IMG/VR virus record: IMGVR_UViG_3300018432_000001
Coordinates: 78,478 to 142,477 of that record
Strand: one strand, 5' to 3'
Source: a virus
Length of the DNA: 64,000 bases
The translations under genes were made by a program, and so were the position numbers. The notes under the pieces were generated by a model that made no database searches, was not told the DNA's origin, and worked only from the letters and a program-made list of their open reading frames with translations. Shown here one piece after another: positions 175-47,030 of this stretch. Positions within the stretch are counted from its first letter, which is position 1; each line of letters starts with the position of its first letter.

Positions 175-1704
175 ATGGCTGAGACTTCTACCGTCCGAGG
201 CCGGATGGCCCGGTTCACGCGCCTGGACGACATGGGTCGTCCGCTGTACGGACCGGGCAACCAGGCCGTCACCAAGGGCATCATTTCGGTCACCTACACC
301 CCGAACGTCACCGAAGGCGAAGCCACCTCGGTCACGAACTTCGCGGGCGAACAGTGCATCTCGGCCCCCGCGCCGTGCGCGACCATCGACAACTGGACCG
401 TCGGCGTCGAATTCTGCGCCGTCGACCCTTGTGTCGTCCTGATGATCTACCCGTCCTGGATTCCGATTTATGACGATTTCGGGTCGATCAAGGGTTTCCA
501 GATCGTCGGCGGCCTGTCGTGCGACGTCGGTTTCGCCCTGGAGATCTGGGGCCAGATCGGATCGGCAGGGTCGGCCATCCAGTGCGGACCGGGCGCCGTC
601 TCGGGCTCCACGTACTGGCTCGCGCCGCGCCTCGTGGGCGCCGCTCCCGGCGAAATCACGATCAGTAACGAAGCGACTTCATTCACGTTCAACGGGACCA
701 CCACGAGCCCCGTGGGTTGGCGCCGTGGCCCGTACCTGGTCGACATCGTCAACGGCGTGCCCTCGGTCCTGCGCGACCCGGTCGACTCGGCCGCGCAGCT
801 CGTGGAGTTCACCACGCAGGTGCGTCCGCCCGAGCCCACCAACGGCTGCGTGGAGCTGCCGCGACCGGTCCCGGAGGAAGCGAGCGTCATCATCGACCGC
901 GTTCCCACCGACGACACCGGCATGTGCGCGCGCTTGATCATCGACAACCATGGATTTGGCCCGGTGACGGTGAACTGGGGCGACGGTTCGGACCCCGAGA
1001 CCAGCGGCGACTGCTCGACCATCACCCACTGCTACGCCACGCCGGGCACCTACACGGTGTGCGTCGCCGACCAGCAGACTCCGGCAATCTCGACCTGCCG
1101 CGACATCGTCGTGCCGATGCCTGCCGACCAGCCGACCATGACGCTGGCCGTCGACCCGACCGACGACATGTGTGTCATCGCCACCATCGACATGCCGCCG
1201 CAGTCCGATGGACGCGTCGAAGTCACCTGGGGCGACGACACTGCCGCGTCCACGGTCGAAATCACGCCGGGCACGCCAGTGGAAGTGCGCCACTGCTACG
1301 CCACGCCGGGCGTCTACACCGTCCGTGCCGTGCGCGTGGAGCAGCCGGACTACTACACCACCGCAACCGTCGTGGTGCCGGTCATCGCCAACCCCATGGT
1401 GTCGGCCGCCGTCGACGGCCAGGTGGTCACGCTGACCGTTGACAACAACGGCAACGGGCTGACCACTGTGGAGTGGGGCGACGGCACCACGACCTCCGGT
1501 CCGAACACGGACGGAGGCAACGTCCAGCACACCTACGCCGCCGACGGCACCTACTCGATCACGGTCACTTCGGTGTCCAACCCACTCTCGACCACCACGG
1601 TGCAGGTCACCATCGGTGCCGCTCCAGGCCTCCAGGCCGGAGTCGATGCCGATGAAGGCGATGTGTCGGGCATGACGGTCGAAGTCACCTGGAACAACGC
1701 CTAG
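175..1704 (+). CDS. Major tail (tube) protein with three C-terminal PKD/Ig-like domains plus a terminal half-domain
   Basis: N-terminus VRGRMARFTRLDDMG resembles Streptomyces-phage tail tube proteins; three WGD..H.Y..PG.Y repeats; GGGGAGG RBS. Confidence 0.8.
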   Translation: MAETSTVRGRMARFTRLDDMGRPLYGPGNQAVTKGIISVTYTPNVTEGEATSVTNFAGEQCISAPAPCATIDNWTVGVEFCAVDPCVVLMIYPSWIPIYDDFGSIKGFQIVGGLSCDVGFALEIWGQIGSAGSAIQCGPGAVSGSTYWLAPRLVGAAPGEITISNEATSFTFNGTTTSPVGWRRGPYLVDIVNGVPSVLRDPVDSAAQLVEFTTQVRPPEPTNGCVELPRPVPEEASVIIDRVPTDDTGMCARLIIDNHGFGPVTVNWGDGSDPETSGDCSTITHCYATPGTYTVCVADQQTPAISTCRDIVVPMPADQPTMTLAVDPTDDMCVIATIDMPPQSDGRVEVTWGDDTAASTVEITPGTPVEVRHCYATPGVYTVRAVRVEQPDYYTTATVVVPVIANPMVSAAVDGQVVTLTVDNNGNGLTTVEWGDGTTTSGPNTDGGNVQHTYAADGTYSITVTSVSNPLSTTTVQVTIGAAPGLQAGVDADEGDVSGMTVEVTWNNA

Positions 1705-1714
1705 GAGGGCTGCC

Positions 1715-3016
1715 ATGACCGTCACCATTCAATGGGACGCCGATGCTCCATTGACGGCCCAGCCCGACGCGGGCACCGCAACGAAGGTGTACACGACTGC
1801 AGGGCCCGGAACCGTGACCATCACCGACGAGGCCATCGGCGGTGACAGCGTCACGCTGGACTACACCGTGCCGCTGGAAATGACCACAGTGGTGCCGACT
1901 CCGAACACGGCCGATTCGGCCGGGACCGCCGAAGAGCGCACCATCTCGGTCGCTGGCGAGGGCTTCCCGGCCAGCATGGCGGGCACCGTGGCCATCGCCA
2001 CGGGCGTGCCCGGCGCGTTCGGGACCACGCTGGTGTCGACCTCGGCCACCACCAACACCGCCGGGATCTTCACCGACGTCGACGTGGTGGTGCCAAGCGA
2101 TGCTGCCGCCGGTGACTACCACCTGGAAGTCAGCTTCGGGGCCATCGTGGACCTGTCGGCTGCGATCACGCTCACCAACACCGAGCTCGCTGCGCCGACG
2201 TCGCTCGCGTCGCCGTCGCAGACCTCGACCACGGTCACCCTGACCTGGGCGGCAGTGACCGACGCCGAAACGTATGTGGTCCGTTCCTCGCCTGCAGGCG
2301 CTGGTACTTGGGTCGAGCGTGCCCCGGTGGCGGTTCTGACCGACACGGTCTCGGCGCTCACCGCGTTGACGAGCTACGACTTCCAGGTCAAGGCGCAGGC
2401 CACGGGCTCGACCGATTCGCCGTGGTCGACCACGCTCACGCAGTCCACGACCGCGCAGCCGGTGCTGGACGCACCGGCGAACCCATCGGCGGGCACGCCG
2501 ACGACCACGACCATCCCGTTCTCCTGGGATGCGGTCACCGACGCCGAAACGTACACCGTCGAATGGCGGATCAGCCCGGCCGGAGCCTGGACCGCAATCG
2601 ACAGCATCGCCACCACCAACACCACGGTCAGCGGCCTGGACCCGAATACGACGTACGACCTGCGGGTCAAGGCCGTCGCTGATGGATTCACGGACTCTCC
2701 GTTCTCTGCAGTCGTCACCGAGTCCACCGATTCGCTGGGCACGTTGGCCGCTCCGACCGGTATCGCCAGCCCGTCGCAGACGGCCACGACGATCGACCTC
2801 ACGTGGGACGCGGTTCCCAATGCCACCAGCTACGGCATCGAACGGTCGCCTGCGGGGGCCGGGACGTGGGTCGAAGTGCAGACCGCTGGGACGAACGCTG
2901 CGACGGTGACCGGCATGGTCGCCAGCACTTCATATGACTTCCGGATTTCGGCTCGCGCCGCCGGATGGGTCGACTCGGACTGGTCGGCCACGTTCACCCA
3001 AGCCACCACCGCTTAA
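1715..3016 (+). CDS. Virion decoration protein: N-terminal half-PKD, an Ig-like domain and three FN3 domains
   Basis: AGGAGG RBS; three P..L......T.....W..V..A..Y.V...W.....L...T.YD..V.A repeats. Confidence 0.85.
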   Translation: MTVTIQWDADAPLTAQPDAGTATKVYTTAGPGTVTITDEAIGGDSVTLDYTVPLEMTTVVPTPNTADSAGTAEERTISVAGEGFPASMAGTVAIATGVPGAFGTTLVSTSATTNTAGIFTDVDVVVPSDAAAGDYHLEVSFGAIVDLSAAITLTNTELAAPTSLASPSQTSTTVTLTWAAVTDAETYVVRSSPAGAGTWVERAPVAVLTDTVSALTALTSYDFQVKAQATGSTDSPWSTTLTQSTTAQPVLDAPANPSAGTPTTTTIPFSWDAVTDAETYTVEWRISPAGAWTAIDSIATTNTTVSGLDPNTTYDLRVKAVADGFTDSPFSAVVTESTDSLGTLAAPTGIASPSQTATTIDLTWDAVPNATSYGIERSPAGAGTWVEVQTAGTNAATVTGMVASTSYDFRISARAAGWVDSDWSATFTQATTA

Positions 3017-3034
3017 GCAGAGAGGAGAGCCGCT

Positions 3035-5260
3035 GTGCCTATCGTGTTGCAGCCTGTCGACCAGCTCGCGCACAACGAGCTGGCGCAGCGGCTCGCCTGC
3101 TGGGCCAAAGCCGAAGACGGCTTCACCGACAATGCCCTGATCTACCAGTCCTGCTGTGTCTCCCCCACCGGGCAGACGCTGGGCCGGTGGGTCGTTGACG
3201 AAGCGCTGTGCGCCGAGTACGGGCCGTTCGACTTCACCGCCAACGAAGGCGACGTTATTGTCTGCCCGACGCCGGGTTCGGCCGAGTACACCAACTACTA
3301 CATCTACGACGACGACGTCCACGCTATCGACCCGAACACCTGCATCGAGCAGCTGCTCGCGGCGCCGACAGGCCTGAACTCGCCCACGCAGGGACCCACC
3401 ACCGTGGACCTGGCGTGGGACGCCGTCCCTGACGCTCAGCGGTACGTCGTCCGCTGGTCTTTGGCTGGTCAGGACGACTGGACGGAGCTGGCGCCCACGT
3501 TCCTGCTGACCGCCGAGGTCACGGGCCTGACCGACGAAACGAGCTACGACTTCCAGGTGCAGGCGATCGCCGTGGGCTTCGTCGACTCGCCGTGGTCGGC
3601 CACGCTCACGCAGGCCACCACCTCGCTGGGGACGCTCGCAGCGCCTACGGGGCTCGCGACCCCATCGGCCACCGGTACCACCATCGACGTCACCTGGAAC
3701 GCCGTCGACAACGCCACCGGGTACACCGTGGAATGGTCGCCCACCGGCGCTGGAACGTGGACTCCGGCGACCACGGCCACGAACTCGTACACGATCACCG
3801 GTCTGACCTTGGACACGTCCTACGACATCCGCGTCAAGGCGACCGCACCGGGCTGGACCGACTCGCCGTATTCGGCCCAGATCATCGGCTCTACCGAGGC
3901 GCAGCTCGCCACTCCGGCGGGGCTCGCGTCGCCCTCGCAGACCGGCCTGACCGTGAACCTCACGTGGTCGGCGGTCACCGACGCCAACGAGTACGTCGTG
4001 CGCTGGTCTCCGGCCGGTGCGGGCACCTGGACTGAACTGGCGCCAGTAGGCATCACTAGCGCGACGGTGTCCGGTTTGACCGCCTCTACCAGTTACGACT
4101 TCCAGGTCAAGGCCCAGGCCGAGGACTTCGTCGACTCCGCGTGGAGCACCACGCTGACCCAGTCCACGGCGGCTGTCCTGGCGACGCCGGTACTGACGAG
4201 CCCATCGCAGACGGACACCACGGTCGCTTTGACCTGGGGTGCAGTGCCGAATGCGACGTCGTACACCGTGCAGTGGTCGCTGGCGCCGTCCGGTTCCTGG
4301 AACGCCATGCCGGACGTGTCGGGTACCGGGCAGACCGTCACGGGCCTGACCGCTGCCACGTCCTACCGGTTCCGGGTGCTGGCGCACGCTGCCGGTTGGA
4401 CCGACTCCGCGTGGTCGGCCGAGCTGACTCAGGCGACCGATGCCGCCCTGGCAGCGCCGACCGGGGTGAACAGCCCATCGCAGACCGCCTCGACGATTGA
4501 CGTCGCATGGACTGCCGTGGCGGGCGCGGACGGGTACACCGTCGAATGGTCCCCGGCGGGTGCGGGCACGTGGACGCCTGCGACGAACGCGGACACCACA
4601 TACACGATCATCGGGCTCGCGGCCGACACCGCCTACGACATCCGCATCAAGGCCACCGCGACCGGGTTTGCCGACTCGGCGTACTCGACGGTGCTCACGC
4701 AGTCGACGCTGGAAGTGCAGCTCGCTGCACCGACCGGGTTCGCGAGCCCCTCGCAGACCGACACGAGCATCAACACGTCCTGGGACGCCGTTGACGACGC
4801 CGAGTCCTACGTCGTGGAGTGGTCCCCGGCGGGTGCAGGCACGTGGACCCCGGTCCCCGCTGCCACGACTACCCAGGAGATCACGGGTCTCTCAGCCGCC
4901 ACCAACTACGACCTTCGGGTCAAGGCGATCGCAGACGACCACATCGACTCGACCTACGCAACGCTCACGCAGGAAACGCATGGGCCGCTGCTCGCGCCGA
5001 CCGGTCTCGCCAGTCCCTCCCAGACGTCGACCACGGTCGACCTCACCTGGAACGCGGCCATCAACGCCGATTTCTACGTCGTGCGCTGGTCGCCTGCGGG
5101 GGCCGGGACCTGGACTGAGGAACCGCAGGTGTCGGGGACCTCGGACACCGTCTCGGGGTTGACGGCCTCGACTTCATATGACTTCCAAGTCAAAACCATT
5201 GCGGACGGTTTCGCCGACTCTGGCTGGTCCGGCTCGCTTACCCAGTCAACTACCGCCTAG
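3035..5260 (+). CDS. Protein with seven FN3 repeats and a Cys-containing N-terminal domain
   Basis: Seven ~90-aa FN3 repeats; N-terminal ~105 aa shared with 5274..6161. Confidence 0.85.
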   Translation: MPIVLQPVDQLAHNELAQRLACWAKAEDGFTDNALIYQSCCVSPTGQTLGRWVVDEALCAEYGPFDFTANEGDVIVCPTPGSAEYTNYYIYDDDVHAIDPNTCIEQLLAAPTGLNSPTQGPTTVDLAWDAVPDAQRYVVRWSLAGQDDWTELAPTFLLTAEVTGLTDETSYDFQVQAIAVGFVDSPWSATLTQATTSLGTLAAPTGLATPSATGTTIDVTWNAVDNATGYTVEWSPTGAGTWTPATTATNSYTITGLTLDTSYDIRVKATAPGWTDSPYSAQIIGSTEAQLATPAGLASPSQTGLTVNLTWSAVTDANEYVVRWSPAGAGTWTELAPVGITSATVSGLTASTSYDFQVKAQAEDFVDSAWSTTLTQSTAAVLATPVLTSPSQTDTTVALTWGAVPNATSYTVQWSLAPSGSWNAMPDVSGTGQTVTGLTAATSYRFRVLAHAAGWTDSAWSAELTQATDAALAAPTGVNSPSQTASTIDVAWTAVAGADGYTVEWSPAGAGTWTPATNADTTYTIIGLAADTAYDIRIKATATGFADSAYSTVLTQSTLEVQLAAPTGFASPSQTDTSINTSWDAVDDAESYVVEWSPAGAGTWTPVPAATTTQEITGLSAATNYDLRVKAIADDHIDSTYATLTQETHGPLLAPTGLASPSQTSTTVDLTWNAAINADFYVVRWSPAGAGTWTEEPQVSGTSDTVSGLTASTSYDFQVKTIADGFADSGWSGSLTQSTTA

Positions 5261-5273
5261 TTAGGAGATAGCC

Positions 5274-6161
5274 ATGCCTATCGTGCTCCAGCCGATCGAT
5301 CAGATCGCTAAAAAGGAGTTGGCTCAGCAGCTGGCCTGCTGGGCGCGGGCCGCCAACGGCCTGACCGACGTCGCCGTCCAGTACGGTACCTGCTGCGTCT
5401 CGCCGACCGGCGAGACGTTGGGGCGTTGGACGATCCCCAACGACCTCTGCACCACGTACGGTGAGCTTCCGTTCACCGGAAATAACGGGGAGACGATCGT
5501 CTGCCCGCCCGTCGGGTCGGCCGAGTACGTCTCGTACTACATCTACGACGAAGACGTCGACCCGATCGACGTGGACACCTGCACGCCGCTGGTGGCGCTC
5601 GATGCGCCGACTGCGCTCGCGGCCGGGACCCCGACCGACACCACCATCCCGCTGACCTGGGTCGCCTCGGCGAACGCCAACGGATACACGGTGTCGTACT
5701 CCTCGGACTCGGGCACGACCTGGCTGGAGGTACAGGCCACCGGCAGCCCGTTCACGCTGACGGGGCTGACGCCGGAGACGACGTACACCATCCGCATCCG
5801 CGCGACCGACTCGACGAATACGTTCGCGAAGTCGCCGTGGACGAGCACGGTCACCGCCACCACGGAGTCTTCGCTGCCTGAGCTGGACGTCCCAGAGAAC
5901 CTGGCGACCGGTACTCCAGCGGCGACCGAGATGCCGCTGACCTGGGATGCGGTCACGAACGCCGTGTCGTACCACGTCCAGTACAAGACGACGGCATCGT
6001 CGACGTGGCTGGACTTCGCGACCGAGCCGGTCACGCCGTCGACCACGGTCACGGGCCTGGTGACCGCAACCAGCTACGACTTCCGGGTGCGCGCCAACGC
6101 CGACGACATCTCGTTCTCGGACTCGGACTACAGCGCGCCGGTCACCGAGACCACCGCGTAA
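5274..6161 (+). CDS. Protein with two FN3 repeats, paralog of 3035..5260
   Basis: MPIVLQPIDQ..LACW..CCVSPTG N-terminus; two FN3 repeats; AGGAG RBS. Confidence 0.85.
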   Translation: MPIVLQPIDQIAKKELAQQLACWARAANGLTDVAVQYGTCCVSPTGETLGRWTIPNDLCTTYGELPFTGNNGETIVCPPVGSAEYVSYYIYDEDVDPIDVDTCTPLVALDAPTALAAGTPTDTTIPLTWVASANANGYTVSYSSDSGTTWLEVQATGSPFTLTGLTPETTYTIRIRATDSTNTFAKSPWTSTVTATTESSLPELDVPENLATGTPAATEMPLTWDAVTNAVSYHVQYKTTASSTWLDFATEPVTPSTTVTGLVTATSYDFRVRANADDISFSDSDYSAPVTETTA

Positions 6162-6167
6162 GCGACA

Positions 6168-6212
6168 TGGAGGTGCCCGGCTCTCCTCGAAAGAGAGAGC
6201 CGGGCACCTCCA
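6168..6212 (+). terminator. Long hairpin, probable terminator
   Basis: TGGAGGTGCCCGGCTCTC / GAGAGCCGGGCACCTCCA 18-bp stem just after a stop codon. Confidence 0.7.
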
Positions 6213-6244
6213 GTTCCAACTTATCGTCCCTTTTGGAGGGGTAT

Positions 6245-6997
6245 ATGCCGAGTATCAAGTGGTACCCGGACCGTACGGTACCGCGCAAGGGCAAGGCCCG
6301 CGTCATCGATGTGCCGCAGGCGTACACGCTGTCCTTCGGGGATGGCAACACGATCGCGAAGGACGCCGACGACGTCTACCCGTACACCTATGCGGCGGCA
6401 GGCCCGTACGCGTTGAACGTGACGCTGGTCGGCGAGACCGAACCGGCGGCGTCGCTGCTGCTGAACGTGCTGGACGCAACGGTCCCGAACGTGACTATCT
6501 CGGCTCCGGCCAACACGCAGAAGATCCGGGTGGCGTTCAACGACCCCGAGATGCCCGTCGTGGGCCGCTACACGGTGGACTGGACGTCGACGGAGAGCGA
6601 AGATGTGCTCGCCGAGCCGGACAAGTACGTGGAGCGGCTCTTCGCGCCGGGCACGTATCCGATCCGGGTCACCGACCACTGGTCGGGACTGTCGGTGGTG
6701 CAAGACGTGGTGGTGGCGGCGGTGGCTGACGATCCGGGTTTTAGCCTCGCCGAGGACACGTCCGATGTCTCGCGGATGACAGCAGAGCTCGAAGTGCTCG
6801 CGGTTCCCTCGGCAGAACCCGAAGAGACTCTCACCGTCGACTGGGGCGATGGCCAAACCGAGACGCTCGCCGCCATCGTGGGCACAACGGCCTCACATGC
6901 TTACGCCTATGACGATGAGTACATGGTGGAGCTCGCGTACACCGCTGAGCCCGCGAAGAACACCACGCAGTTCGTGTGGCTGCCGTTCACGGATTAG
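6245..6997 (+). CDS. PKD-domain virion protein (about three PKD units)
   Basis: Start MPSIKWYP after GGAGGGG; FGDG..YTY..AGPY and VDWGDG..HAY motifs. Confidence 0.75.
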   Translation: MPSIKWYPDRTVPRKGKARVIDVPQAYTLSFGDGNTIAKDADDVYPYTYAAAGPYALNVTLVGETEPAASLLLNVLDATVPNVTISAPANTQKIRVAFNDPEMPVVGRYTVDWTSTESEDVLAEPDKYVERLFAPGTYPIRVTDHWSGLSVVQDVVVAAVADDPGFSLAEDTSDVSRMTAELEVLAVPSAEPEETLTVDWGDGQTETLAAIVGTTASHAYAYDDEYMVELAYTAEPAKNTTQFVWLPFTD

Positions 6998-7011
6998 TCC
7001 CGGAAGCAAGG

Positions 7012-7046
7012 AGCGGCCCTGACGTTGCGCACGTCAGGGCCGCTTT
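7012..7046. terminator. Hairpin terminator between the convergent PKD gene and tRNA-Met
   Basis: AGCGGCCCTGACGT / ACGTCAGGGCCGCT 14-bp stem. Confidence 0.7.
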
Positions 7047-7047
7047 G

Positions 7048-7121
7048 TCGCGGGGAGCGGATTTGAACCGCCGACCTTCAGGTTATGAGCCTGTTGAGCT
7101 ACCGAACTGCTCCACCCCGCT
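7048..7121 (-). tRNA. tRNA-Met(CAT), initiator-like
   Basis: AGCGGGG-TG-GAGC..GCTC, loop CTCATAA, T loop TTCAAAT; 1:72 mismatch and A11-U24; CCA not encoded. Confidence 0.9.
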
Positions 7122-7315
7122 GCGCGTCTCTGAGTGTAGCTGGTGTGCGGTGACGTCCTTTTCGAGTTGGTCCATGAGGGCGACCGACGAGGTCGTGCCC
7201 ACGTACAGGCACGCCATCCGAGAATTCGGCAAAGAGTATACACAACACCCTCATGTCCGTTTTGTCGTCTATAGTATGAATGACGTGGGTTTTTATTGCT
7301 AAGGAGGTCAGGCTG

Positions 7316-8884
7316 ATGGCGATCGCCCAGTACTCCGACCTGTTCTGGTATCCCTCAGGCACGCTGGCCACCGGCATCCAGGTACGCATCTTCGAACTCA
7401 ACGACAACGTGTTCGCCCCGCTCTTCTCCGACCCCGCCGGAACCATTCCCCTTGCCAACCCGATGACCACCAGCGCCACCGGCACCATCTCGTTCTACGC
7501 CGAGCAGGGCGAGTACTGGATGCACGCCGACTCCGAGAGTTTCCGGATCGGCGTCGGCCTGTCCCCGGTGACCCCGGAGACGATCGCCGCCATCGAAGCG
7601 GACGTGGCTGCGCTGCAAACCGACATGACAGCGGTCGAAGGCGACGTCACGGGCCTGCAAACCGCCGTAGCTACTGCGCAGGGCGACATCACGGCACTTC
7701 AGGGTGATGTAACGGCAGCGCAAGGGGACATTACTGCCTTGGAAGGGAACGTCGGAACCCTCCAGACCGACATGACCACCGCGCAGGGCGACATCACCGC
7801 GCTGCAGACCGGTTTGGGCACCGCGCAGGGCGACATCACCGCGCTGGAAGGCGACATGGCTACCGCGCAGGGCGACATCACCGCGCTGGAAGGCGACATG
7901 GCTACCGCGCAGGGAGACATCACCGCGCTGGAAGCGGCCATCGAGGTCACGGAAAAGGCGGCAGCATCCACACTGTCGACAGGCGTCTCTGCCGGTGGTG
8001 AGTTGAACGTCAACGGTGTGAGTTCTTCGGCGATTGATATCGCTCCGCTGGTCGGGTACATCACGTCGTTCGACATCGATCCGTTCAATCCTGCCATCAC
8101 CCGCATCGAATACCCCGGCGGGACTGTGGAGATGGACGCGGGCGCGCTCTCGCGGACCGCAACGGCGTGGTTGATGGACGTCAACCAGGTGATTACGCAG
8201 CAGGCGACGCCGCCCACGAATTCGCAGCGTCGCACCCACATCTTCTTGGGTATCACCGCGCAAGTCGGCGGCGTCATCATCGTCGACCAGACGTTGCAGA
8301 CCATTCTGCAACAACCCGCCAACCAACTGTCCGACCTGCTGAACTCGCTCGGCGCGTTCAACATCTCGGGGAACATCATCTCTGCCAACGGCGCGAACCT
8401 CATGATCAACCAAACGGCTGGAACGATGTTCGCCCAGTCGTTCAACCACTTCATGGGCCCCGTGCAGACCAACGACCCGCATGTGAACACGACGATGGCG
8501 CAGACCCCGGCGAACTTCCGGTACGCCACCCGCGACCCGAACACGCCGTTCGGGCTGCTTCGCAACACCATCGACGTCGCGAACTACGACAACGCAGGCG
8601 TCATCACGCCGATCGGCGGCGGCGCGAACTCCGCGACGATTCACCGCGTGTACCTGTTCGCGAACAACACCGCGAACGAGCAGATCGCCATCCAGTACGG
8701 GCAGAGCGTCTATGCGTCGCTGTCCGCAGCCGTCAACGCCATCGGTTCGGGCACGTTCGTGCAGAACCCGCTCATGAACGCCGCTGCCCTGCTGGGGCAC
8801 ATCTGCGTCATCCGGACCGCAACCAGCCTCGCCGACCCCGCGCAAGCCATCTTCGAAACCGCCGGAAAGTTCGACACCCCGTAA
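7316..8884 (+). CDS. Fibre-like virion protein with a coiled-coil shaft
   Basis: AAGGAGG RBS; 14-aa repeats QGDITALEGDMATA; globular N- and C-terminal regions. Confidence 0.7.
   Translation: MAIAQYSDLFWYPSGTLATGIQVRIFELNDNVFAPLFSDPAGTIPLANPMTTSATGTISFYAEQGEYWMHADSESFRIGVGLSPVTPETIAAIEADVAALQTDMTAVEGDVTGLQTAVATAQGDITALQGDVTAAQGDITALEGNVGTLQTDMTTAQGDITALQTGLGTAQGDITALEGDMATAQGDITALEGDMATAQGDITALEAAIEVTEKAAASTLSTGVSAGGELNVNGVSSSAIDIAPLVGYITSFDIDPFNPAITRIEYPGGTVEMDAGALSRTATAWLMDVNQVITQQATPPTNSQRRTHIFLGITAQVGGVIIVDQTLQTILQQPANQLSDLLNSLGAFNISGNIISANGANLMINQTAGTMFAQSFNHFMGPVQTNDPHVNTTMAQTPANFRYATRDPNTPFGLLRNTIDVANYDNAGVITPIGGGANSATIHRVYLFANNTANEQIAIQYGQSVYASLSAAVNAIGSGTFVQNPLMNAAALLGHICVIRTATSLADPAQAIFETAGKFDTP
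7600..7935 (+). repeat. 42-bp tandem coding repeats (two heptads each)
   Basis: ACCGCGCAGGG(C/A)GACATCACCGCGCTG recurs at ~7778, 7820, 7862 and 7904, with degenerate copies upstream. Confidence 0.85.
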
Positions 8885-8895
8885 GGAGATAGGTC

Positions 8896-9735
8896 ATGCC
8901 GGTCATCAACGTCGCGCCGACCGTCGCGGACGGTGAGGGAAACGCGCTGTACCCGTGCGAGCCGTGGCCGATCAACCCTGTGTGCTGCCCAGGGTGGCCT
9001 GCCGACCCGGCCGAGTGGGACCCCGCGCATTATGACGCTCAGTGGCTGGCCACGGTCGAGCTCTGGCGCGCGGTCGCCGGAGTCATCGGGCTGTGCCGGA
9101 CCACTGAGCTGCCGTGTCTGGACCAGTGCGTGGCGCGCCCGCTGGAGGCGTACTGGATGCGTCCCTACCGGGACGTCAACGGCGCCTGGTTCAACTCCAA
9201 GTGCGGATGCCGCGATACGTGCTCGTGCTCGCAGCTGTGCACGGTAACCCTCCAGGGGCCGGTGTACTCGATTGAGTCGGTCACCGTCGACGGCGTCGCC
9301 CTGGAGAGCGATGAGTGGAAGCTGCTCACCAACAACCGGCTCGCCCGCTGCGGCGGATGCTGGCCCGCCTGCCAGGACTACTGCACCGAGGACGGTCTCG
9401 TCGTCACCTACCTGCGCGGCATTCCGCCAGGCCTGGACGCCATCCGCGCCGTCAGCATCCTCGCCTGCCGCCGACTCCAAGAATGCCCACCAAGTGGCGG
9501 CGACTGCGGCACACTGCCCTCCGGCGTCACCAGCATCAACCGTGAAGGGCTGAACATGCAGCTGGACTCGACCATCGGGGCCGGGGAAGACGGCGTCATC
9601 CACTTCACCGGCATCGCCCGGGTTGATCGATGGATCGCTTCGATCAACCCCTACGGCGTCACCTCGAACCCATCCGTGTGGTCGCCCGACGTCGACACCT
9701 CGCAGGTCTGGCGCACCGGCACGGTGACGCCATGA
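8896..9735 (+). CDS. Cys-rich head-to-tail adaptor-like protein
   Basis: LP..VTSINREG and TGIARVDRWIASINP motifs typical of actinophage adaptors; position in the module. Confidence 0.65.
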   Translation: MPVINVAPTVADGEGNALYPCEPWPINPVCCPGWPADPAEWDPAHYDAQWLATVELWRAVAGVIGLCRTTELPCLDQCVARPLEAYWMRPYRDVNGAWFNSKCGCRDTCSCSQLCTVTLQGPVYSIESVTVDGVALESDEWKLLTNNRLARCGGCWPACQDYCTEDGLVVTYLRGIPPGLDAIRAVSILACRRLQECPPSGGDCGTLPSGVTSINREGLNMQLDSTIGAGEDGVIHFTGIARVDRWIASINPYGVTSNPSVWSPDVDTSQVWRTGTVTP

Positions 9736-9956
9736 TCCCGTTGATCGTGAGTCTGGTCTACACCGTTGCCATGCTGTTCACCGCACGCATGCTCTACCGC
9801 AACGCCGTCACCAGCGGCTTCGACGTCACCACTCCCGCGCGCCTATTCATGGGCGTCGGCTTCGCCCTGATCTATGCGCTGGCATGGCCGCTGCTGCTGC
9901 TGGGCATCGGGGCGGTGCGTTTCATCGTGCACCGCGCCAAGGGAGACGTCGCGTGA
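9732..9956 (+). CDS. Small membrane protein (two TM helices)
   Basis: MIPLIVSLVYTVAMLF...ALAWPLLLLGIG; ATGA and GTGA overlaps on both sides. Confidence 0.6.
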   Translation: MIPLIVSLVYTVAMLFTARMLYRNAVTSGFDVTTPARLFMGVGFALIYALAWPLLLLGIGAVRFIVHRAKGDVA

Positions 9957-10618
9957 ACGTCCTGGACTACCTCGAAGACGAGCTGCTGTCGTGCCTGTGC
10001 TCGATGCTGCGCACCGAAGGGCGTCCAGCTTGCGAGTGCCATCACTTCGGCGGTGACGTGCCGCCAGTCGGGGACCGCTGCCAAGCCAACACTGCCGGAG
10101 AGAACGGTCAAGTCTGGGTTCGCCGCATCTCGCAGGCGATCGAGGTCGATCCCGAAGACATCACGTTCGGTGGCCTCCCGTGCGCGAGTTCCTGGCAGGC
10201 GCAGATCGAGCTGGGCATCTACCGGTGCATCACCGCCATCCCCGACGACAACGGGAATGCACCATCACCGGCGGCCTACGACGCCGACCGGGATCTGCTC
10301 GTCGCTGATCGGGCGACCCTCGCGCAGGTGCTGTGCTGCTGGCCACTGGTCGGTGAGGCGCCCACTCCGGTGCCCTTCGACCTGCCTATCTCGGTGATCG
10401 CGGCGCAGATCCTGCCACTGGGGCCCACCGGAGGGTGTGCCGGTTCGATCTTGACGCTCGTTGTCAACGCGCCGCTCATCGTCGAAGAGCCCGTGGCGCA
10501 GCTGGTCGCCGGTGTCGATGCCGATCCTGCCGACCCGAGTGGTCAGACCGCCGTGGTCACCTGGCGAAACGAACCTGCGGAGGAGGTCTTCATTTCGCGT
10601 CCAGCCGGAGGTGGTTAA
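9953..10618 (+). CDS. Tail terminator-like protein with a C-terminal half-PKD tag
   Basis: GQVWVR, ELGIYRC and PLGPTGGCAG motifs; GTG start overlapping the upstream stop. Confidence 0.6.
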   Translation: MNVLDYLEDELLSCLCSMLRTEGRPACECHHFGGDVPPVGDRCQANTAGENGQVWVRRISQAIEVDPEDITFGGLPCASSWQAQIELGIYRCITAIPDDNGNAPSPAAYDADRDLLVADRATLAQVLCCWPLVGEAPTPVPFDLPISVIAAQILPLGPTGGCAGSILTLVVNAPLIVEEPVAQLVAGVDADPADPSGQTAVVTWRNEPAEEVFISRPAGGG

Positions 10619-11100
10619 TGGTCATCCGGTTGCGCGTAACGCGCGTCGACATCAACATGGCCGAAGCCAACCGGTTGCTGAACTCTCCGCAGGGCGAAGT
10701 GGCGTCGTTGGTGGTGCTGACGTCGCAGCGGGTGCGGGCGATGTGCGTGCAGCAGACCCCTGTGCAGGACGGCGACATGAAGGCCAGCTACGGGTTCGCG
10801 CTGCGTGTGCGGCCCTTCCGGTACATCATGGGCCGCGTTATGAACTTCGACGAGGCGGCGCTGTGGGTGCAGATCGGCACCGGGATCTATGGCAAACGGG
10901 GACGACCGATCACGCCGAACACGAAGCGGTTCCTGCGGTTCGAAGGCAAACGAGATGGTGCGCTGCTGTATCGGCGGTCGGTGAAAGGACAACCGGCAAA
11001 CCCGTTCATGTTGCGTGGCCTGATCAGGGGGACGTCGGGGCGCCAGCGGTGGGTGATCACGCCCGGTTCGGGGGTGCGGAACATCGGGTCGGGACCGTGA
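10618..11100 (+). CDS. HK97 gp10-like neck/minor tail protein
   Basis: TPVQDGDMKAS, ALWVQIGTG and VKGQPANPFM motifs. Confidence 0.7.
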   Translation: MVIRLRVTRVDINMAEANRLLNSPQGEVASLVVLTSQRVRAMCVQQTPVQDGDMKASYGFALRVRPFRYIMGRVMNFDEAALWVQIGTGIYGKRGRPITPNTKRFLRFEGKRDGALLYRRSVKGQPANPFMLRGLIRGTSGRQRWVITPGSGVRNIGSGP

Positions 11101-11155
11101 CACACCGGAACCCAAATGTCTGATTTAGTCGCATTAGTAGGGTTAGATCCTTTAT

Positions 11156-11668
11156 GTGACTGATGATCTGTTTACCTCGCGTCCGCTGGCCGATGCCCAG
11201 AAGCAGTACGCCAAGACCAGCCCCGCCGCGCAGCCGCAGAACGGGGCCCAGCCGCAGCGGGCCATCCGGCCGCAGCCCATTCTCGACATCAACCTCGACG
11301 ATGTTCCCGAGACTTCCTACGCCGAATTCGTGTTCCAGCTCAAAGGCAACATCTACACCCTCGGCATCGACGACGACACCGTGCTGTTCGACATCGCCGA
11401 GATGAGCATGGACGAGGTCAGCCCCACCGACCTCTTCGAGTACTTCTTCGAACGCACTTTCCGGCGCGCCGTCGACGAGAACGGCGACGAGATCGACGAC
11501 GGCCTCGGCGTGCTCCTGCGGGCCACCGCCGCCCGCCCGCGCGACAACTCCCGTCCGGTGCCCAGGCAGCAGCTGCTGCGGATCATGAACACGGCCGTCG
11601 AGGACTGGATGGGCGAGCTCACCGACACGAACATGCGGCCTAAGCGCCGTTCGGGTCGCCGTCGTTGA
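11156..11668 (+). CDS. Tail assembly chaperone (putative)
   Basis: Acidic small protein two genes before the tape measure. Confidence 0.55.
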   Translation: MTDDLFTSRPLADAQKQYAKTSPAAQPQNGAQPQRAIRPQPILDINLDDVPETSYAEFVFQLKGNIYTLGIDDDTVLFDIAEMSMDEVSPTDLFEYFFERTFRRAVDENGDEIDDGLGVLLRATAARPRDNSRPVPRQQLLRIMNTAVEDWMGELTDTNMRPKRRSGRRR

Positions 11669-12195
11669 TCTCCTCGTTCGCCACCACTGTCCACATGCCT
11701 GGGATCTCGCCCGACCGCGTGCTGCTGCGCATCGACGACGAGGACTTCGAGTTGCCGGTTCCAGGCGCGCAGCGCCTCCTGGACATCGGTGCCTCCTACG
11801 GATGGCGCCATCTCATGCCCGACGGCCTGGTCACGGTGGACAAGGAGCGCATGTACGAGCGCCTGAAAGACCCCGAGGACTTGATGAGCTGGAAGCGGCT
11901 GCACGTGATCGCGCAGCCGCTGGGGCTCTATCTCTACGGGTTCCCGTTCTTCGTGGCCTCGCGCGCGCTGGGAACGCTGCGGCACTACCTCACGTCGTTT
12001 CGCATGTGGTCGGTATGCAACCTGCGGATCGATCTGGCCACGGCGAGCGCGGCCGACTGGTGCGCGGCGGCGGTGACGTGGCTGGTGCAGACCGGTGACA
12101 AGGAGGAGAAGCGGCTGGAGATGTGGGCGCAGCTGACGACGCCGGGGGTGTTGCCCATGGAAGCGCCGGGGGTGAGCCCCGATTGGATGGCTTAA
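11665..12195 (+). CDS. Second tail assembly chaperone (putative)
   Basis: Immediately precedes the tape measure; -1 frame relative to the upstream gene. Confidence 0.5.
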   Translation: MISSFATTVHMPGISPDRVLLRIDDEDFELPVPGAQRLLDIGASYGWRHLMPDGLVTVDKERMYERLKDPEDLMSWKRLHVIAQPLGLYLYGFPFFVASRALGTLRHYLTSFRMWSVCNLRIDLATASAADWCAAAVTWLVQTGDKEEKRLEMWAQLTTPGVLPMEAPGVSPDWMA

Positions 12196-12262
12196 CTAAC
12201 CACAAGACGTACCATAATACCCGTATGCCCGATTTGTGATCTAATGAGAACTTGGGGGGGTT

Positions 12263-15200
12263 ATGGCAGTAATTGCGACTGCAGAAGTTCGCGTTGTCGC
12301 CGACACCTCCCGGTTCCTCTCCAACCTGCGGCGCCAACTGCGCGGTGCCTTCAGCCAAATCGGCGCCCAAGCTGCCCAGCAGTTCACCAACGCCTTCAAC
12401 CAGAACATCGGCAACCAGTTCACCGGCGGTCTTCGCCGCGCAGGCCAGCAAGGTGGCGTCTCCTTCACCGACGGATTGCGCACCGCCCTGCGCCGAGGGC
12501 TGCGCGGCATCCAGATCCTCGGCTTCCTCAACCTCGCCATCGTCCAAGGCCTCCAAGGGGCTGCGCAGCTGGTCTCCAGGGGGTTGCGCGTTGCCTTCGT
12601 GGAGGGTGGCCGTGGCATCGTCACCGCGTTCCAGAACGCCGTGGTCAACCCCCTACGCACCTTGATCGGGAACCTCTTCGGCCGGGCGCTGAACGCCACG
12701 CTGTCGCGTCTGGCACCCCTGTTCGCCGCTGCCGGAGCCGCAGCCCGCAACGCCTTCTTCAGCCAGATGGCCGGAATCGGCGCGGCCATCACGAATTTCA
12801 TCAACAGCCCCGTCGGCCAGGCACTGGGTCGCATCCCGGCGCTGTTCCGCGCCGCAGGCGACCTCGCTCGTGAGGCGTTCTTCCAGCGTATGGCCGGAAT
12901 CGGCGCGGGCATCATGAACATCATCGAAGGGCCGATCGGGCGCGCCGCCACCCGCATCGGGCAGCTCTTCGGCGCGGCCGGTGACCTGGCGCGCGAGTCG
13001 TTCTTCCGCAGTATGGCGGGCATTGGCGCCGGGATCACGAACTTCATCGAGAGCCCGGTCGGCCGGGCACTGGGCAGGCTTCCCGCGCTGTTCCGCGCCG
13101 CAGGCGACCTGGCCCGCGAGGCGTTCTTCCAGCGCATGGCGGGCATCGGTGCGCTCATCACCAATGTTCTGGAAAGTCCGATCGGACGTGCCCTGGGTCG
13201 CCTCCCGGCGCTGTTCCAGGCGTTCGGCACCCGTGCCAGTGATGCGTTCGGGCGCGGTCTGCTGCGGTTGCGCACAGCGGGTACGACGGCCGTCAACAAC
13301 ATCACGCAGGCGATCAACCGTGCAGGTCCACGTATTCAGGCAGCGGCCACCCGTGCGTTCGGTCCCGCTGCGCAGAGCGTCCAGCGGGCCTTCAACCTCA
13401 TCCCCTGGGCACGCATCGGCCAGGGCATCGGCCAGTTGTTCGGCCGGGGTGTCGGCGATGGAGCTGAGGAGGAGACGCAGCGGCGCGGCCAGAGCATCGG
13501 CGCGCGCTTCGGATCGGCCATGACCCGAGGCCTCACCGCCGGGCTGCGCGGCCTCAGCACCGCACTTGCGTCCATCTCGCTGCGGCCCTTGCAAGCCTTG
13601 GCCGGAATCTTGGGCAACGCCACCAGCGAGATGATCTCCATGGCGGCTCAGGCCCTGGTCGTGGTCGGCCTCCTGGAGTCGCTCTCAGGCGCCCTGTTCG
13701 CACTCCCCGCCGTGCTCAACGTCGTAGGCGCCGGTGTCGCCACCGTCGCCATCGCCTTCAACGGCTTCGGCGCCGCTATCGGCGCGGCCTTCGAAGACAC
13801 CGCCGCCTTCGAAGAGGCGCTTGAAGGCCTCGCTCCAGCGGCCCAGAGCGTCGCCCGCGAGTTCCAGGCCATCGCCCCCGCGCTCACCGACATGCGCCTG
13901 GGCGCGCAGGAGGCACTGTTCTCCCAGCTCGCAGGCACCATCACTGCCGTTGCCGATAACCTGCTCGGCCCCCTCAGCGAGGGCCTGAACCTCGCTGCCG
14001 CGTCTTTCGGGGGGATCGTCGCCGGGATCGGCGAGTTCCTCGCCCAGAGCGCCACCGCTGGCACCGTTACCGCCACGTTCGCGACGCTTTCCGCCATCTT
14101 CGACGCGCTCGCGGTGTCCACAGTGCCATTCCTGGAGGCGATGCGCCTCCTGGCCGACACCTTCCTGCCTCGAATCGCCGAAGCAGCCGGTCCCCTCGCC
14201 GGGCTCGGCGCCCAGTTCCAGGCCTGGACTGAGCAGGTCGTCGCCTCCGGCGACGCCATGGCCGCCTTCGACTTCGCCATTCAGGTGTTTCAGCAGCTCG
14301 CCGGGGTAGTCGGCAGTCTCGCCGGGATCTTCCAGGCAGTCTTCTCAGCTGCCGAGCTCGCCGGTGTCGACGCGCTGGGCGCCATCGGCGAAGGACTCGA
14401 AGTCGTCCGCACCACCTTCGAATCGTTCGAGGGGCAAGCGGCCCTGGCAAACGTGTTCGCGGCCATCGGCACCACCGTGCAGGCCCTAGCGCCCGTCTTC
14501 GCCACCCTGGTGACCCAGCTCGGCCTCGTCTTCCCGATCGTCGGGCTGATCGCCGAGGCGCTGGGCCCCAGCTTGTCGGTCGTCCTCGAAGGACTCGGGC
14601 AGGCCCTGCTCGCCCTCGGCCCCGGCGTCGTCGAGGTCTTCGCCGGGATCGCCGCCGCCGCTGAAGCCATTGCCCCCTCCCTCGCCCCCCTTGGCGCGGC
14701 CATCGGCGCCGTACTGACAGCGATCGCACCGATACTCCCTGTGATCGGCGAGCTGATCGGGATCGTCGTCACCCTCGGTGCGCAGATCCTCTCAGTGTTG
14801 GCAAGCGCGATCATGCCGATCGTGCAGGCGCTCGCAGGCGCCCTAGCTCCAGTTTTGCCCCTTATTGCCGATTTGTTCACCAGGCTGGTCACGGCGCTCG
14901 CGCCCGTGATCGAGGCTCTGGGCGCCGGGCTGGCAAGCGTTATCGCGACCCTGCTGCCGCCGATTCTGCAGCTCGTCGCCGCGCTCGCGGAGGCCTTGAT
15001 GCCGATCATCGAGGCGCTTTTGCCCGTTTTGACCCCAATTATTGAGATTTTCTTCCAACTGGTCAATGTGATCGGTTCGTTGCTCGTTCCCATCATTTCC
15101 CTGCTTTTGCCCATTATTGAGGCACTTAGTCCGGTTTTGCAGCTGGTCGGGCTCGTCCTCGCTCCCCTGCTGGAGCTCTTCTCGGCGATCCTGGAGCCGA

Positions 15201-16051
15201 TCACCACGCTGATCACGCTGATCGCGGGCCTGCTCACGCCCGTGATCGAGTTCCTGGCCGAGATCATCGGCGCGATCATCGGTGCCGCGCTGACGCCGCT
15301 GACCGCCGCCTTCGGGTTCCTGGCCGACATCCTCGCTGACCACGTCATTCCGTGGTTCGAGGAGAGCACCGCGATCCTGAAGCTGTTCTGGGAGACCGCG
15401 ATTGAGCCGCTGATCGAGTGGATCGGTCGGCTCAGCAGCGGGGTCACCGAGCGATTCGGCACTATCCGTGACGCAGTGACCACTCTCTGGAATCTGTGGA
15501 AAAACCGGTTCGACCTCATGGAGAGCCTGATCGAGACCGTGGTCGACGTGGTCTCCGACGCGGCAGGCAACATCGGTGACTTCTTCAGTAACATGGGCGA
15601 CACGATCAGTGACGTCTTTGACAACATGCTGGACGGCCTGCGCAGCGCCCGCGACACCATCTCCGGCATCGTCGACTCGATCGTCGGATTCGTCCAGGAC
15701 GCCATCAACACCGCCCAGAACCTCGGCGACATCGACCTCAACCCGTTCGCCAACGGCGGCATCGTCAACGGACCCACCGCCGCGCTCATCGGCGAAGCGG
15801 GACGCGAGGTCGTCATCCCCCTCACCCGGCCCCAGCGCGCCGCCGAACTCGCCCAGCAGTCGGGACTCATCGATCTGCTCGCTGCCCAAGGCGCTCTTGG
15901 TGGAGCTTCCATCAGCGGCACACCAGCCGGTCCTGTCGTCGGTGAGATGCACGTCCACTCCCAAAACGCCGATCCCGAGCAGGTCGCTCGCAAGGCGCTG
16001 CGAATCATCGAGCGCCGCATGGGCGGCCGGGGATTGGAGCGACTCTCATGA
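12263..16051 (+). CDS. Tape measure protein
   Basis: 1262 aa, Ala/Gly/Leu-rich helical repeats; N-terminal IATAEVRVVADT; C-terminal PFANGGIV..IGEAGREVVIPL. Confidence 0.92.
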   Translation: MAVIATAEVRVVADTSRFLSNLRRQLRGAFSQIGAQAAQQFTNAFNQNIGNQFTGGLRRAGQQGGVSFTDGLRTALRRGLRGIQILGFLNLAIVQGLQGAAQLVSRGLRVAFVEGGRGIVTAFQNAVVNPLRTLIGNLFGRALNATLSRLAPLFAAAGAAARNAFFSQMAGIGAAITNFINSPVGQALGRIPALFRAAGDLAREAFFQRMAGIGAGIMNIIEGPIGRAATRIGQLFGAAGDLARESFFRSMAGIGAGITNFIESPVGRALGRLPALFRAAGDLAREAFFQRMAGIGALITNVLESPIGRALGRLPALFQAFGTRASDAFGRGLLRLRTAGTTAVNNITQAINRAGPRIQAAATRAFGPAAQSVQRAFNLIPWARIGQGIGQLFGRGVGDGAEEETQRRGQSIGARFGSAMTRGLTAGLRGLSTALASISLRPLQALAGILGNATSEMISMAAQALVVVGLLESLSGALFALPAVLNVVGAGVATVAIAFNGFGAAIGAAFEDTAAFEEALEGLAPAAQSVAREFQAIAPALTDMRLGAQEALFSQLAGTITAVADNLLGPLSEGLNLAAASFGGIVAGIGEFLAQSATAGTVTATFATLSAIFDALAVSTVPFLEAMRLLADTFLPRIAEAAGPLAGLGAQFQAWTEQVVASGDAMAAFDFAIQVFQQLAGVVGSLAGIFQAVFSAAELAGVDALGAIGEGLEVVRTTFESFEGQAALANVFAAIGTTVQALAPVFATLVTQLGLVFPIVGLIAEALGPSLSVVLEGLGQALLALGPGVVEVFAGIAAAAEAIAPSLAPLGAAIGAVLTAIAPILPVIGELIGIVVTLGAQILSVLASAIMPIVQALAGALAPVLPLIADLFTRLVTALAPVIEALGAGLASVIATLLPPILQLVAALAEALMPIIEALLPVLTPIIEIFFQLVNVIGSLLVPIISLLLPIIEALSPVLQLVGLVLAPLLELFSAILEPITTLITLIAGLLTPVIEFLAEIIGAIIGAALTPLTAAFGFLADILADHVIPWFEESTAILKLFWETAIEPLIEWIGRLSSGVTERFGTIRDAVTTLWNLWKNRFDLMESLIETVVDVVSDAAGNIGDFFSNMGDTISDVFDNMLDGLRSARDTISGIVDSIVGFVQDAINTAQNLGDIDLNPFANGGIVNGPTAALIGEAGREVVIPLTRPQRAAELAQQSGLIDLLAAQGALGGASISGTPAGPVVGEMHVHSQNADPEQVARKALRIIERRMGGRGLERLS
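12707..13216 (+). repeat. 123-bp (41-aa) tandem repeats in the tape measure
   Basis: About 4.2 copies of RLPALFRAAGDLAREAFFQRMAGIGAGITNFIESPVGRALG. Confidence 0.85.
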
Positions 16052-46398: not shown

Positions 46399-46401
46399 AC
46401 G

Positions 46402-46475
46402 TCGGGCTGACAGGATTCGAACCTGCGACCCCCCGCTCCCAAAGCGGGTGCGCTACCAAACTGCGCCACAGCCCG
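46402..46475 (-). tRNA. tRNA-Pro(TGG)
   Basis: CGGGCTG acceptor, CCCGC-TTTGGGA-GCGGG, GTTCGAATC. Confidence 0.92.
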
Positions 46476-46516
46476 GAAGGCGCCAGCGTGCGGGCGCTGG
46501 CGCCGGTCCCTGCGAG

Positions 46517-46587
46517 AGCCCTCGCGGGGAATCGAACTCCGGTCGCTCGCTTACGAGGCGAGTGCTCTGCCACTGAGCTACAAGGGC
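46517..46587 (-). tRNA. tRNA-Thr(CGT)
   Basis: GCCCTTG acceptor, CTCGC-CTCGTAA-GCGAG; one T-stem mismatch. Confidence 0.85.
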
Positions 46588-46588
46588 G

Positions 46589-46661
46589 AGCGGCAACCGG
46601 GGATCGAACCCGAGACCTTCTGGTTGGAAGCCAGACGCTCTACCAGCTGAGCTACTGCCGC
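46589..46661 (-). tRNA. tRNA-Gly(TCC)
   Basis: GCGGCAG acceptor, TCTGG-CTTCCAA-CCAGA, U73. Confidence 0.92.
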
Positions 46662-46662
46662 G

Positions 46663-46735
46663 TGCCCAAGGCAGGATTCGAACCTGCAACCTTCCGGTCC
46701 GGAACCGGATGCTCTGTCCGTTGAGCTACCTGGGC
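46663..46735 (-). tRNA. tRNA-Arg(CCG)
   Basis: GCCCAGG acceptor, TCCGG-TTCCGGA-CCGGA. Confidence 0.92.
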
Positions 46736-46740
46736 ATTGT

Positions 46741-46818
46741 GTACAGCAGTTCCGGCTGCTGCACTGCTTCCCTTTCACGCCCTACCGCCGGAGCAGCTTT
46801 GCGGCAGTACCGCTGTGC
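46741..46818 (-). ncRNA. tRNA-sized structured RNA inside the array (candidate)
   Basis: Terminal stem GCACAGCGGT/ACTGCTGTAC with internal hairpins. Confidence 0.35.
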
Positions 46819-46838
46819 GAGCCCAAGGAGCCGGGCCG

Positions 46839-46912
46839 TACCCAGGGTGGGACTTGAACCCACACTGTGCGGTGTTTGAAGCCGCTGCCTCTGCCGATTG
46901 GGCTACCCGGGC
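46839..46912 (-). tRNA. tRNA-Leu(CAA), short variable loop
   Basis: GCCCGGG-TAGCCCAATCGGCAGAGGC; GCGGC-TTCAAAC-ACCGC with a C31-A39 mismatch. Confidence 0.85.
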
Positions 46913-46958
46913 GTGTTCCTCTACTGTCACCGTCACCCTACGCGATGCGGCGGTGGTG

Positions 46959-47030
46959 TGCTCAGGGAGGGATTTGAACCCCCAACCCTCGGTATGTGAC
47001 ACCGATGCGCTGCCATTGCGCCACCCGAGC
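46959..47030 (-). tRNA. tRNA-Val(CAC)
   Basis: GCTCGGG acceptor, TCGGT-GTCACAT-ACCGA. Confidence 0.88.

Follow-up and report, generated by a model that had tools for sequence, protein, structure and literature searches.

A split Ig-like domain at the junction of a phage tail tube gene and the following gene, with a proposed role in docking a decoration protein

Ig-like and FN3 decorations of phage tails are usually described as covalent, being either fused to the tail protein or added by frameshifting. In other systems an incomplete Ig-like fold is completed by strands of a different polypeptide, as in the donor-strand complementation of chaperone-usher pili and in tag/catcher and split-FN3 pairs made by engineering; in pili the donated part is a single strand (G), and both a chaperone and an usher are required, and the SpyTag/SpyCatcher pair is engineered and covalent. 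We analyzed a stretch of viral DNA (hereafter the window), which is the last 64 kb of one 142,477-bp soil-metagenome contig, 66% G+C (IMG/VR record IMGVR_UViG_3300018432_000001, positions 78,478 to 142,477). Here the gene encoding the major tail (tube) protein, the first open reading frame (ORF1), is followed by the gene of an FN3-containing protein (ORF2, or gene 2), and the two proteins appear to share a single Ig-like domain, as the first one ends with two of its strands (the tag) and the second one begins with the others (the acceptor). The arrangement we propose would differ from the pili because two N-terminal strands (A and B) are donated and because its context is a phage virion; it would differ from SpyTag/SpyCatcher in that there is no sign of a covalent bond.

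The closest described system is the baseplate tripod of Lactococcus phage Tuc2009, in which domain 2 of BppA (57 residues) is an incomplete sandwich and has one of its sheets completed by a C-terminal hairpin of 25 residues from BppU; the BppU/BppA composite is similar to a titin Ig domain (Legrand et al. 2016, PMC4742702). The tag of 24 residues, also C-terminal, and the acceptor of 55 residues match that hairpin in length and that domain in size, and here, as there, the proposed role is to attach an accessory module to a tail structural protein. The acceptor is the C-terminal domain of the partner in Tuc2009, whereas here it is the N-terminus; the site is the baseplate there, and the tail-tube protein and a neck-region protein here; moreover, the tags described below are movable, can be tandem and have unbroken versions in relatives. 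A profile of the split domain matched no PDB chain at E < 0.5, and sequence relationship to BppU or BppA was judged through this search.

In SPP1 (gp17.1*) and in the Listeria phages PSA, A118 and A500, as in the window, the gene of a tube protein has behind it an Ig/FN3 module in a different frame, and the outcome in those phages is an Ig-like decoration of the tube (PMC6316719, PMC8718954, PMC5009743). The SPP1 extension is reached at a CCC_UAA site and has no start of its own, whereas here there is no shift-prone site, the frame varies, and gene 2 has both a Shine-Dalgarno (SD) sequence and an ATG. Ig-like domains also project from the tube surface in lambda gpV, T5 pb6 and YSD1 (PMC8718954), to which the three fused PKD-like repeats of ORF1 can be compared; the difference is that the outermost arm would here be a separate polypeptide, attached via the split domain. 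No direct description was found in the literature on split-domain or strand-complementation decoration of phage tails.

The elements of the junction are as follows (strand in brackets; HMM, hidden Markov model).

175-1704 (+): major tail (tube) protein gene, ORF1; 509 aa, made up of a tube domain, three PKD-like repeats that are complete, and an orphan hairpin at the C-terminus
1630-1701 (+): orphan tag, predicted strands A and B of an Ig-like sandwich; 24 codons (LQAG...TWNNA), hairpin HMM E ~1e-11
1702-1704 (+): TAG stop of the tail protein gene; a stop is kept here in 13/13 related loci
1703-1708 (+): AGGAGG Shine-Dalgarno site of gene 2, 6 nt upstream of the ATG at 1715
1715-3016 (+): gene 2, ORF2, a putative decoration "arm"; 433 aa, with an N-terminal half-domain, one Ig-like domain and three FN3 domains
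1715-1879 (+): acceptor half-domain, predicted strands C to G; ORF2 codons 1-55, acceptor HMM E 1.3e-28

The half-domains at the tail protein junction

ORF1 is a siphophage major tail protein (phrog_792, E 3e-55). The three PKD-like repeats behind its tube domain are recognized by Pfam PKD with E 1.5e-13 on residues 412-480, and repeat 3 passes the Pfam threshold (50.9 bits against a cut-off of 23.5). Repeat 3 is followed by the 24 residues LQAGVDADEGDVSGMTVEVTWNNA and then by TAG, and the C-terminus lies only 3 residues past the B-strand Trp of the tag. The N-terminus of ORF2 reads MTVTIQWDADAP..., the acceptor beginning at Met1 without any N-terminal extension; the further domains of ORF2 were assigned from Pfam (fn3, E 1.4e-20, three stretches) and from an AlphaFold2 (AF2) model of residues 1-160. 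A preliminary description of this DNA had read the tail protein as ending after the A and B strands of an incomplete repeat, and the orphan hairpin at 1630-1701 bears this out.

That the next gene begins with the missing strands, as was also proposed there, agrees with the existence of unbroken copies of the split-domain subtype in three related loci (L011, L012 and L013), in which tag and acceptor are in one chain. In L011 the tail protein (629 aa) carries one more domain after its three repeats, a complete one, composed of the hairpin (...IVEWDNG), a loop (DHGP) and then VSIQWDDDA...TKVY...TVTIQDE..., and proteins of 185 and 189 aa in L012 and L013 have the same tag, a loop of 4-5 residues and the same acceptor layout. 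An HMM of the N-terminal 55-59 residues of ORF2 matches the unbroken copies at E 1e-11 to 1e-15, and the strands just before the acceptor part of these copies are matched by the hairpin HMM at E ~1e-10 to 1e-13. The acceptor HMM gave no match at E < 0.01 against repeats 1-3 of all tail proteins, and the tag HMM scored tail-protein repeat 1 at no better than E 0.002-0.5. Moreover, the junctions of loci L002 and L005, when read through their in-frame stops, are colinear with the unbroken copies (36-42% identity), and the alignment contains invariant residues in both halves. These HMM matches and the colinear alignment together indicate, at the level of sequence, that tag and acceptor make up a single, specific subtype of Ig-like domain that is divided in its B-C loop.

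The name given to this subtype needs some care. The domain had been called a PKD domain, a label of which the Ig-like, PKD-like sandwich stands and the family membership does not: the read-through domain of L002 has no match to Pfam PKD (PF00801 / PF18911) even when E values up to 10 are allowed, its unbroken counterpart in L012 reaches 14.5 bits, under the Pfam PKD cut-off, and an hhalign comparison of the split domain with repeat 3 of the tail protein itself is colinear but weak (E 0.0015, probability 17%). It is therefore better called an Ig-like or PKD-like sandwich of a distinct subtype than a member of Pfam PKD. MAFFT alignments that placed the ORF2 N-termini on repeat 3, or on a similar B strand (MTVxVTW), were discarded.

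Structure models were obtained for the read-through junction and for the acceptor alone. The first was computed by AF2 on the L002 junction with TAG read as Gly (194 residues), the unbroken homologues serving as alignment. It shows one sandwich with seven strands in residues 7-86, the tag strands being E7-13 and E22-29, and the predicted local distance difference test (pLDDT) values by blocks of 10 residues are 61, 74, 85, 82, 96, 93, 90, 83 and 74. The second domain of this model is poor because only two alignment rows cover that part. A PDB-wide VIA-align search matched model residues 4-87 to complete FN3/Ig domains (Z 8.5, 77-83 residues, root mean square deviation 2.1-2.8), and the match spans tag and acceptor together; the modelled fold of the two pieces is thus that of a complete Ig-like, seven-strand beta-sandwich. 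In the second model (AF2, ORF2 residues 1-160, 15 alignment rows) only four strands are formed in residues 1-55, and residues 21-27, which are strand E in the read-through model, form no strand and fall in the block with the lowest pLDDT (75). This model fits an open sandwich that lacks the A-B-E sheet.

Conservation of the split and distribution of the tag

The relatives were six IMG/VR loci, with tail-protein identities of 96, 95, 88, 85, 66 and 66%, and seven loci found via distant ORF2 homologues; together with the window they make 14 loci with 11 distinct junction types, which range from tail proteins about 96% identical to lineages where the tag is on a separate small protein. In 14/14 loci the upstream gene ends with one or two tags and a stop, and the next gene starts with MTVxhxWDxDxP. 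Whether relatives keep the split had been raised in the preliminary description as a check on its own reading; all 13 related loci keep it, and in none of them (0/13) does one continuous ORF run across this junction. The ATG of gene 2 is likewise kept in 13/13 related loci, and most junctions have an SD-like purine run before it.

A wider search of 1.84 billion representative proteins with ORF2 residues 1-160 gave 26 matches, among which at least 10 clusters, with less than 50% identity between any two of them, have the same first residue (MTVQLTWD, MTVKVQWD, MPVTVQWD, MTVSITWD and others). Since so many divergent clusters share their start, the split is, on this sequence evidence, old. In pairwise comparisons of the closer relatives the ratio of non-synonymous to synonymous changes (pN/pS) is 0.42 for the tag, 0.29 for the acceptor and 0.44 for the intact repeat 3, values which indicate that both halves are under purifying selection. 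Across lineages the chain ends are trimmed to the B-C loop: the upstream chain stops 3-11 residues past the last aromatic residue of strand B (Trp, or Tyr in L005 and L006), and gene 2 has no N-terminal extension. A scan of genome contigs with ORF1 found no relative, and the GenBank phage collection gave only distant tail proteins (identity up to 36%, tube domain only), which are uninformative on the junction.

The tag is also present elsewhere in the window, in a gene located between the head-tail adaptor gene (8896-9735, phrog_783), which precedes it, and the chaperone and tape-measure genes, which come later.

9950-10618 (+): neck-region protein gene (phrog_810, function unknown), carrying a second tag
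10502-10570 (+): second orphan tag, LVAGVDADPADPSGQTAVVTW; hairpin HMM E 7.7e-12

This second tag is placed 15 residues before the end of the neck-region protein. By the hairpin HMM the whole 142,477-bp genome contains exactly two orphan tags, at the tail-protein end and at 10502-10570, and by the acceptor HMM it contains one acceptor copy, that of ORF2. No acceptor gene is present downstream of the second tag, and consequently a recoding fusion cannot explain it. The neck-protein homologues of L005 (8742-9413) and L006 are tagged as well.

Several variants of this arrangement were found among the relatives. Two tandem orphan tags end the tail protein of L005, L006, L010 and L011; in L012 (2447-3004) and L013 (2435-3004) the tags are on separate small proteins, and in L011, L012 and L013 the unbroken tag-plus-acceptor domain comes just before the tandem tags. 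A capsid-like protein of 327 aa in L013 (80-1063) has the tag motif DLTIRPDPVDPTGYTALAEW in the middle of the chain, at residues ~152-173, and a weaker one is present in L012 (91-1053), which hints, from the sequence of this protein, that heads may be tagged as well. Pfam gave no matches on the neck-region protein, its neighbouring proteins and the capsid-like protein of L013. In a further contig (L014:1-1518, protein P0016) a tail-protein fragment, open to the contig end, carries FN3 and Ig arms after repeat 2 in one ORF; such covalently fused arms argue that arms of this kind belong on the tube.

A second kind of split also exists, between 1368-2447 and 2447-3004 in L012 and between 1368-2435 and 2435-3004 in L013. 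There the tail protein ends with ...DWGD(R), after strand C of a PKD-like domain, and the next gene, joined by a TAATG or TGATG overlap, starts with MADY..HTY..GCP (strands E to G); a protein of 814 aa (P0014) starts in the same manner. This second split loop, located after WGD, suggests that this phage group may use divided Ig folds as a general means of assembly.

Docking in trans and competing explanations

Docking in trans by fold completion is our best reading of these sequences and models, with a probability of roughly 0.63. It starts from what the analysis shows: the split and its conservation, the independent translation signals of the two genes, the unbroken homologues and the confident single-domain model of the read-through junction. 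The two cistrons would be translated separately, probably with translational coupling. The tail-tube protein would contribute strands A and B as the tag, and ORF2, from its Met1, strands C to G as the acceptor; after synthesis the tag would enter the open face of the acceptor and complete the sandwich. As a consequence one Ig/FN3 arm would be docked non-covalently on each tube subunit, and the same tag on the neck-region protein would recruit the same arm there. Binding of the two halves in trans, and decoration of the virion by the arm, are inferences.

Several observations weigh against this proposal. The genome has two orphan tags and one acceptor gene, and the tandem tags of several relatives could instead form pairs among themselves or lie packed against the tube. 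The split domain resembles Pfam PKD, and the repeats within the tail protein itself, only weakly. The read-through model was computed on a chain that forces the halves near each other, from an alignment of 5 rows. Finally, AF2 is still fairly confident about the lone acceptor (pLDDT 75-90), so that the acceptor might be stable without the tag.

The main rival is that the junction is a relic of gene fission without complementation, in which the halves derive from one domain and have stayed adjacent but do not bind each other, the tag has another role (packing on a neighbouring subunit, or pairing with a second tag), and the arm is held to the virion by other contacts or is not attached at all. 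The excess of tags over acceptor genes, the occurrence of tandem tags and the fair confidence of the lone acceptor model all speak for such a relic. We consider it less likely than docking, as purifying selection acts on both halves, which also match one and the same unbroken subtype, as the proteins of all lineages stop or start at the B-C loop, and as strand E is left without a partner in the lone-acceptor model.

If docking in trans by fold completion is correct, it would be a third decoration route, in which two genes each encode part of a fold and the parts come together in trans; it would operate on the repetitive tail tube, with a short movable tag on several virion proteins. To our knowledge, trans-reassembly of a split fold is so far known from one crystal structure, that of Tuc2009. 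A broader and more tentative proposal, to which we would give slightly less than an even chance, is that the 24-residue hairpin is the portable tag of a natural, non-covalent tag/catcher system, where any carrier (the tube, the neck, the capsid-like protein of relatives) recruits the same arm and where the number of tandem tags sets the number of arms per subunit. The 24-residue peptide and the 55-residue acceptor are a testable pair that could serve as a protein-docking module, and the unbroken domains provide natural controls for the split one.

The preliminary description had offered two explanations of the junction, fold complementation and a +1 shift at GCC-UAG. The first finds support in the conserved split, the unbroken homologues, the purifying selection and the single-domain read-through model; the second does not find support. 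A programmed +1 ribosomal frameshift at GCC_UAG, similar to that of SPP1, would join some copies of the tail protein to the FN3 protein. Gene 2 is in the +1 frame relative to ORF1, as first described, since (1715-175) mod 3 = 1, and translation across the junction in that frame does give the predicted NNA-RRAA-MTVT. In favour of a shift, the +1 frame of the window, of L001 and of L004 is open over the 26 nt before the stop and runs into gene 2. There are also precedents, as SPP1 and Listeria phages lengthen their tail proteins with Ig-like domains by +1 shifts (PMC6316719, PMC5009743).

The comparison of the 11 junction types points in the opposite direction. The frame offset of gene 2 is 0 in 2 types, +1 in 3 and +2 in 6; the spacer is of 2 to 17 nt, or is replaced by an ATGA overlap (L012, L013); the stop codon is TAG, TAA or TGA, and the last sense codon is GCC, GCT, GCG, TCT, GAG, CCA or GCA. 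The offset flips by 1-nt indels in the spacer between phages about 95% identical. For example, L002, whose tail protein is 95% identical to that of the window, lacks one G of the spacer, so that its gene 2 is in frame 0, and contigs from two further soil sequencing runs (X3, X4) have C>T at 1701 and a 1-nt deletion at 1707, with a frame-0 junction as in L002. Frame variation alone is not decisive, because phages may differ in how they reach an Ig extension, some by a +1 shift, some by -1 and some without any shift, and the direction can thus vary from one phage to another (PMC5009743). Read-through is also blocked by stops in two loci, of which L005 has two consecutive in-frame stops at the junction and L006 has a stop in the gene-2 frame just past that of the tail protein.

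The site itself offers little to a programmed shift. The SPP1-type site had been given correctly as CCC_UAA, and there the tRNA-Pro re-pairs on CCU (PMC6316719); GCC_UAG, non-canonical as had been remarked, offers no re-pairing of this kind. In the window and its close relatives, no X_XXY_YYZ heptamer and no CCC, CTT, TTT, GGG or AAA codon occurs among the final 40 codons of ORF1. The features that define the SPP1 and PSA cases, namely a shift-prone site and a conserved frame without initiation signals of its own, are absent, and gene 2 always has its own ATG, with a strong SD in the window, the AGGAGG at 1703-1708 that had been described at first. With read-through blocked in some loci, the frame differing between phages that are nearly identical, an ATG that never varies and an SD, a programmed shift is very improbable as a main route, although a low background level of shifting may occur in the window itself. 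That a sequencing or assembly error, or a recent inactivating mutation, has interrupted what is really one gene is the least probable explanation of all: the two frames are indeed one base apart, but independent metagenome assemblies from different samples (sequencing runs being compared as assembled contigs) all keep the stop, the SD and the ATG, and their agreement excludes a sequencing error, while the contig of the probable source sample has 0 differences and the split is common to clusters below 50% identity.

For annotators these results are a warning, if docking by fold completion holds, that recoding should not be concluded merely from an Ig gene that follows a tail gene in a different frame.

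Neighbouring genes

Two genes downstream of gene 2 (3035-5260 and 5274-6161) both encode an N-terminal domain of about 105 aa that contains Cys (MPIVLQP...ACWA...), followed by seven FN3 domains in one of them and by two in the other. The same N-terminal domain occurs in relatives (L005:7045-7638 and L010:4724-5611) and may be another docking module.

The gene order of the region (window 175-16051) is unusual, because the tail-tube gene and five decoration or fibre genes are upstream of the head-tail adaptor gene, and a chaperone pair (11156-12195) and the tape-measure gene (12263-16051) are downstream of the neck genes. A lone antisense tRNA-Met gene is located within the block of virion genes, at 7047-7121 (-), and six clustered tRNA genes (Pro, Thr, Gly, Arg, Leu and Val) are present further on, at 46401-47030 (-).

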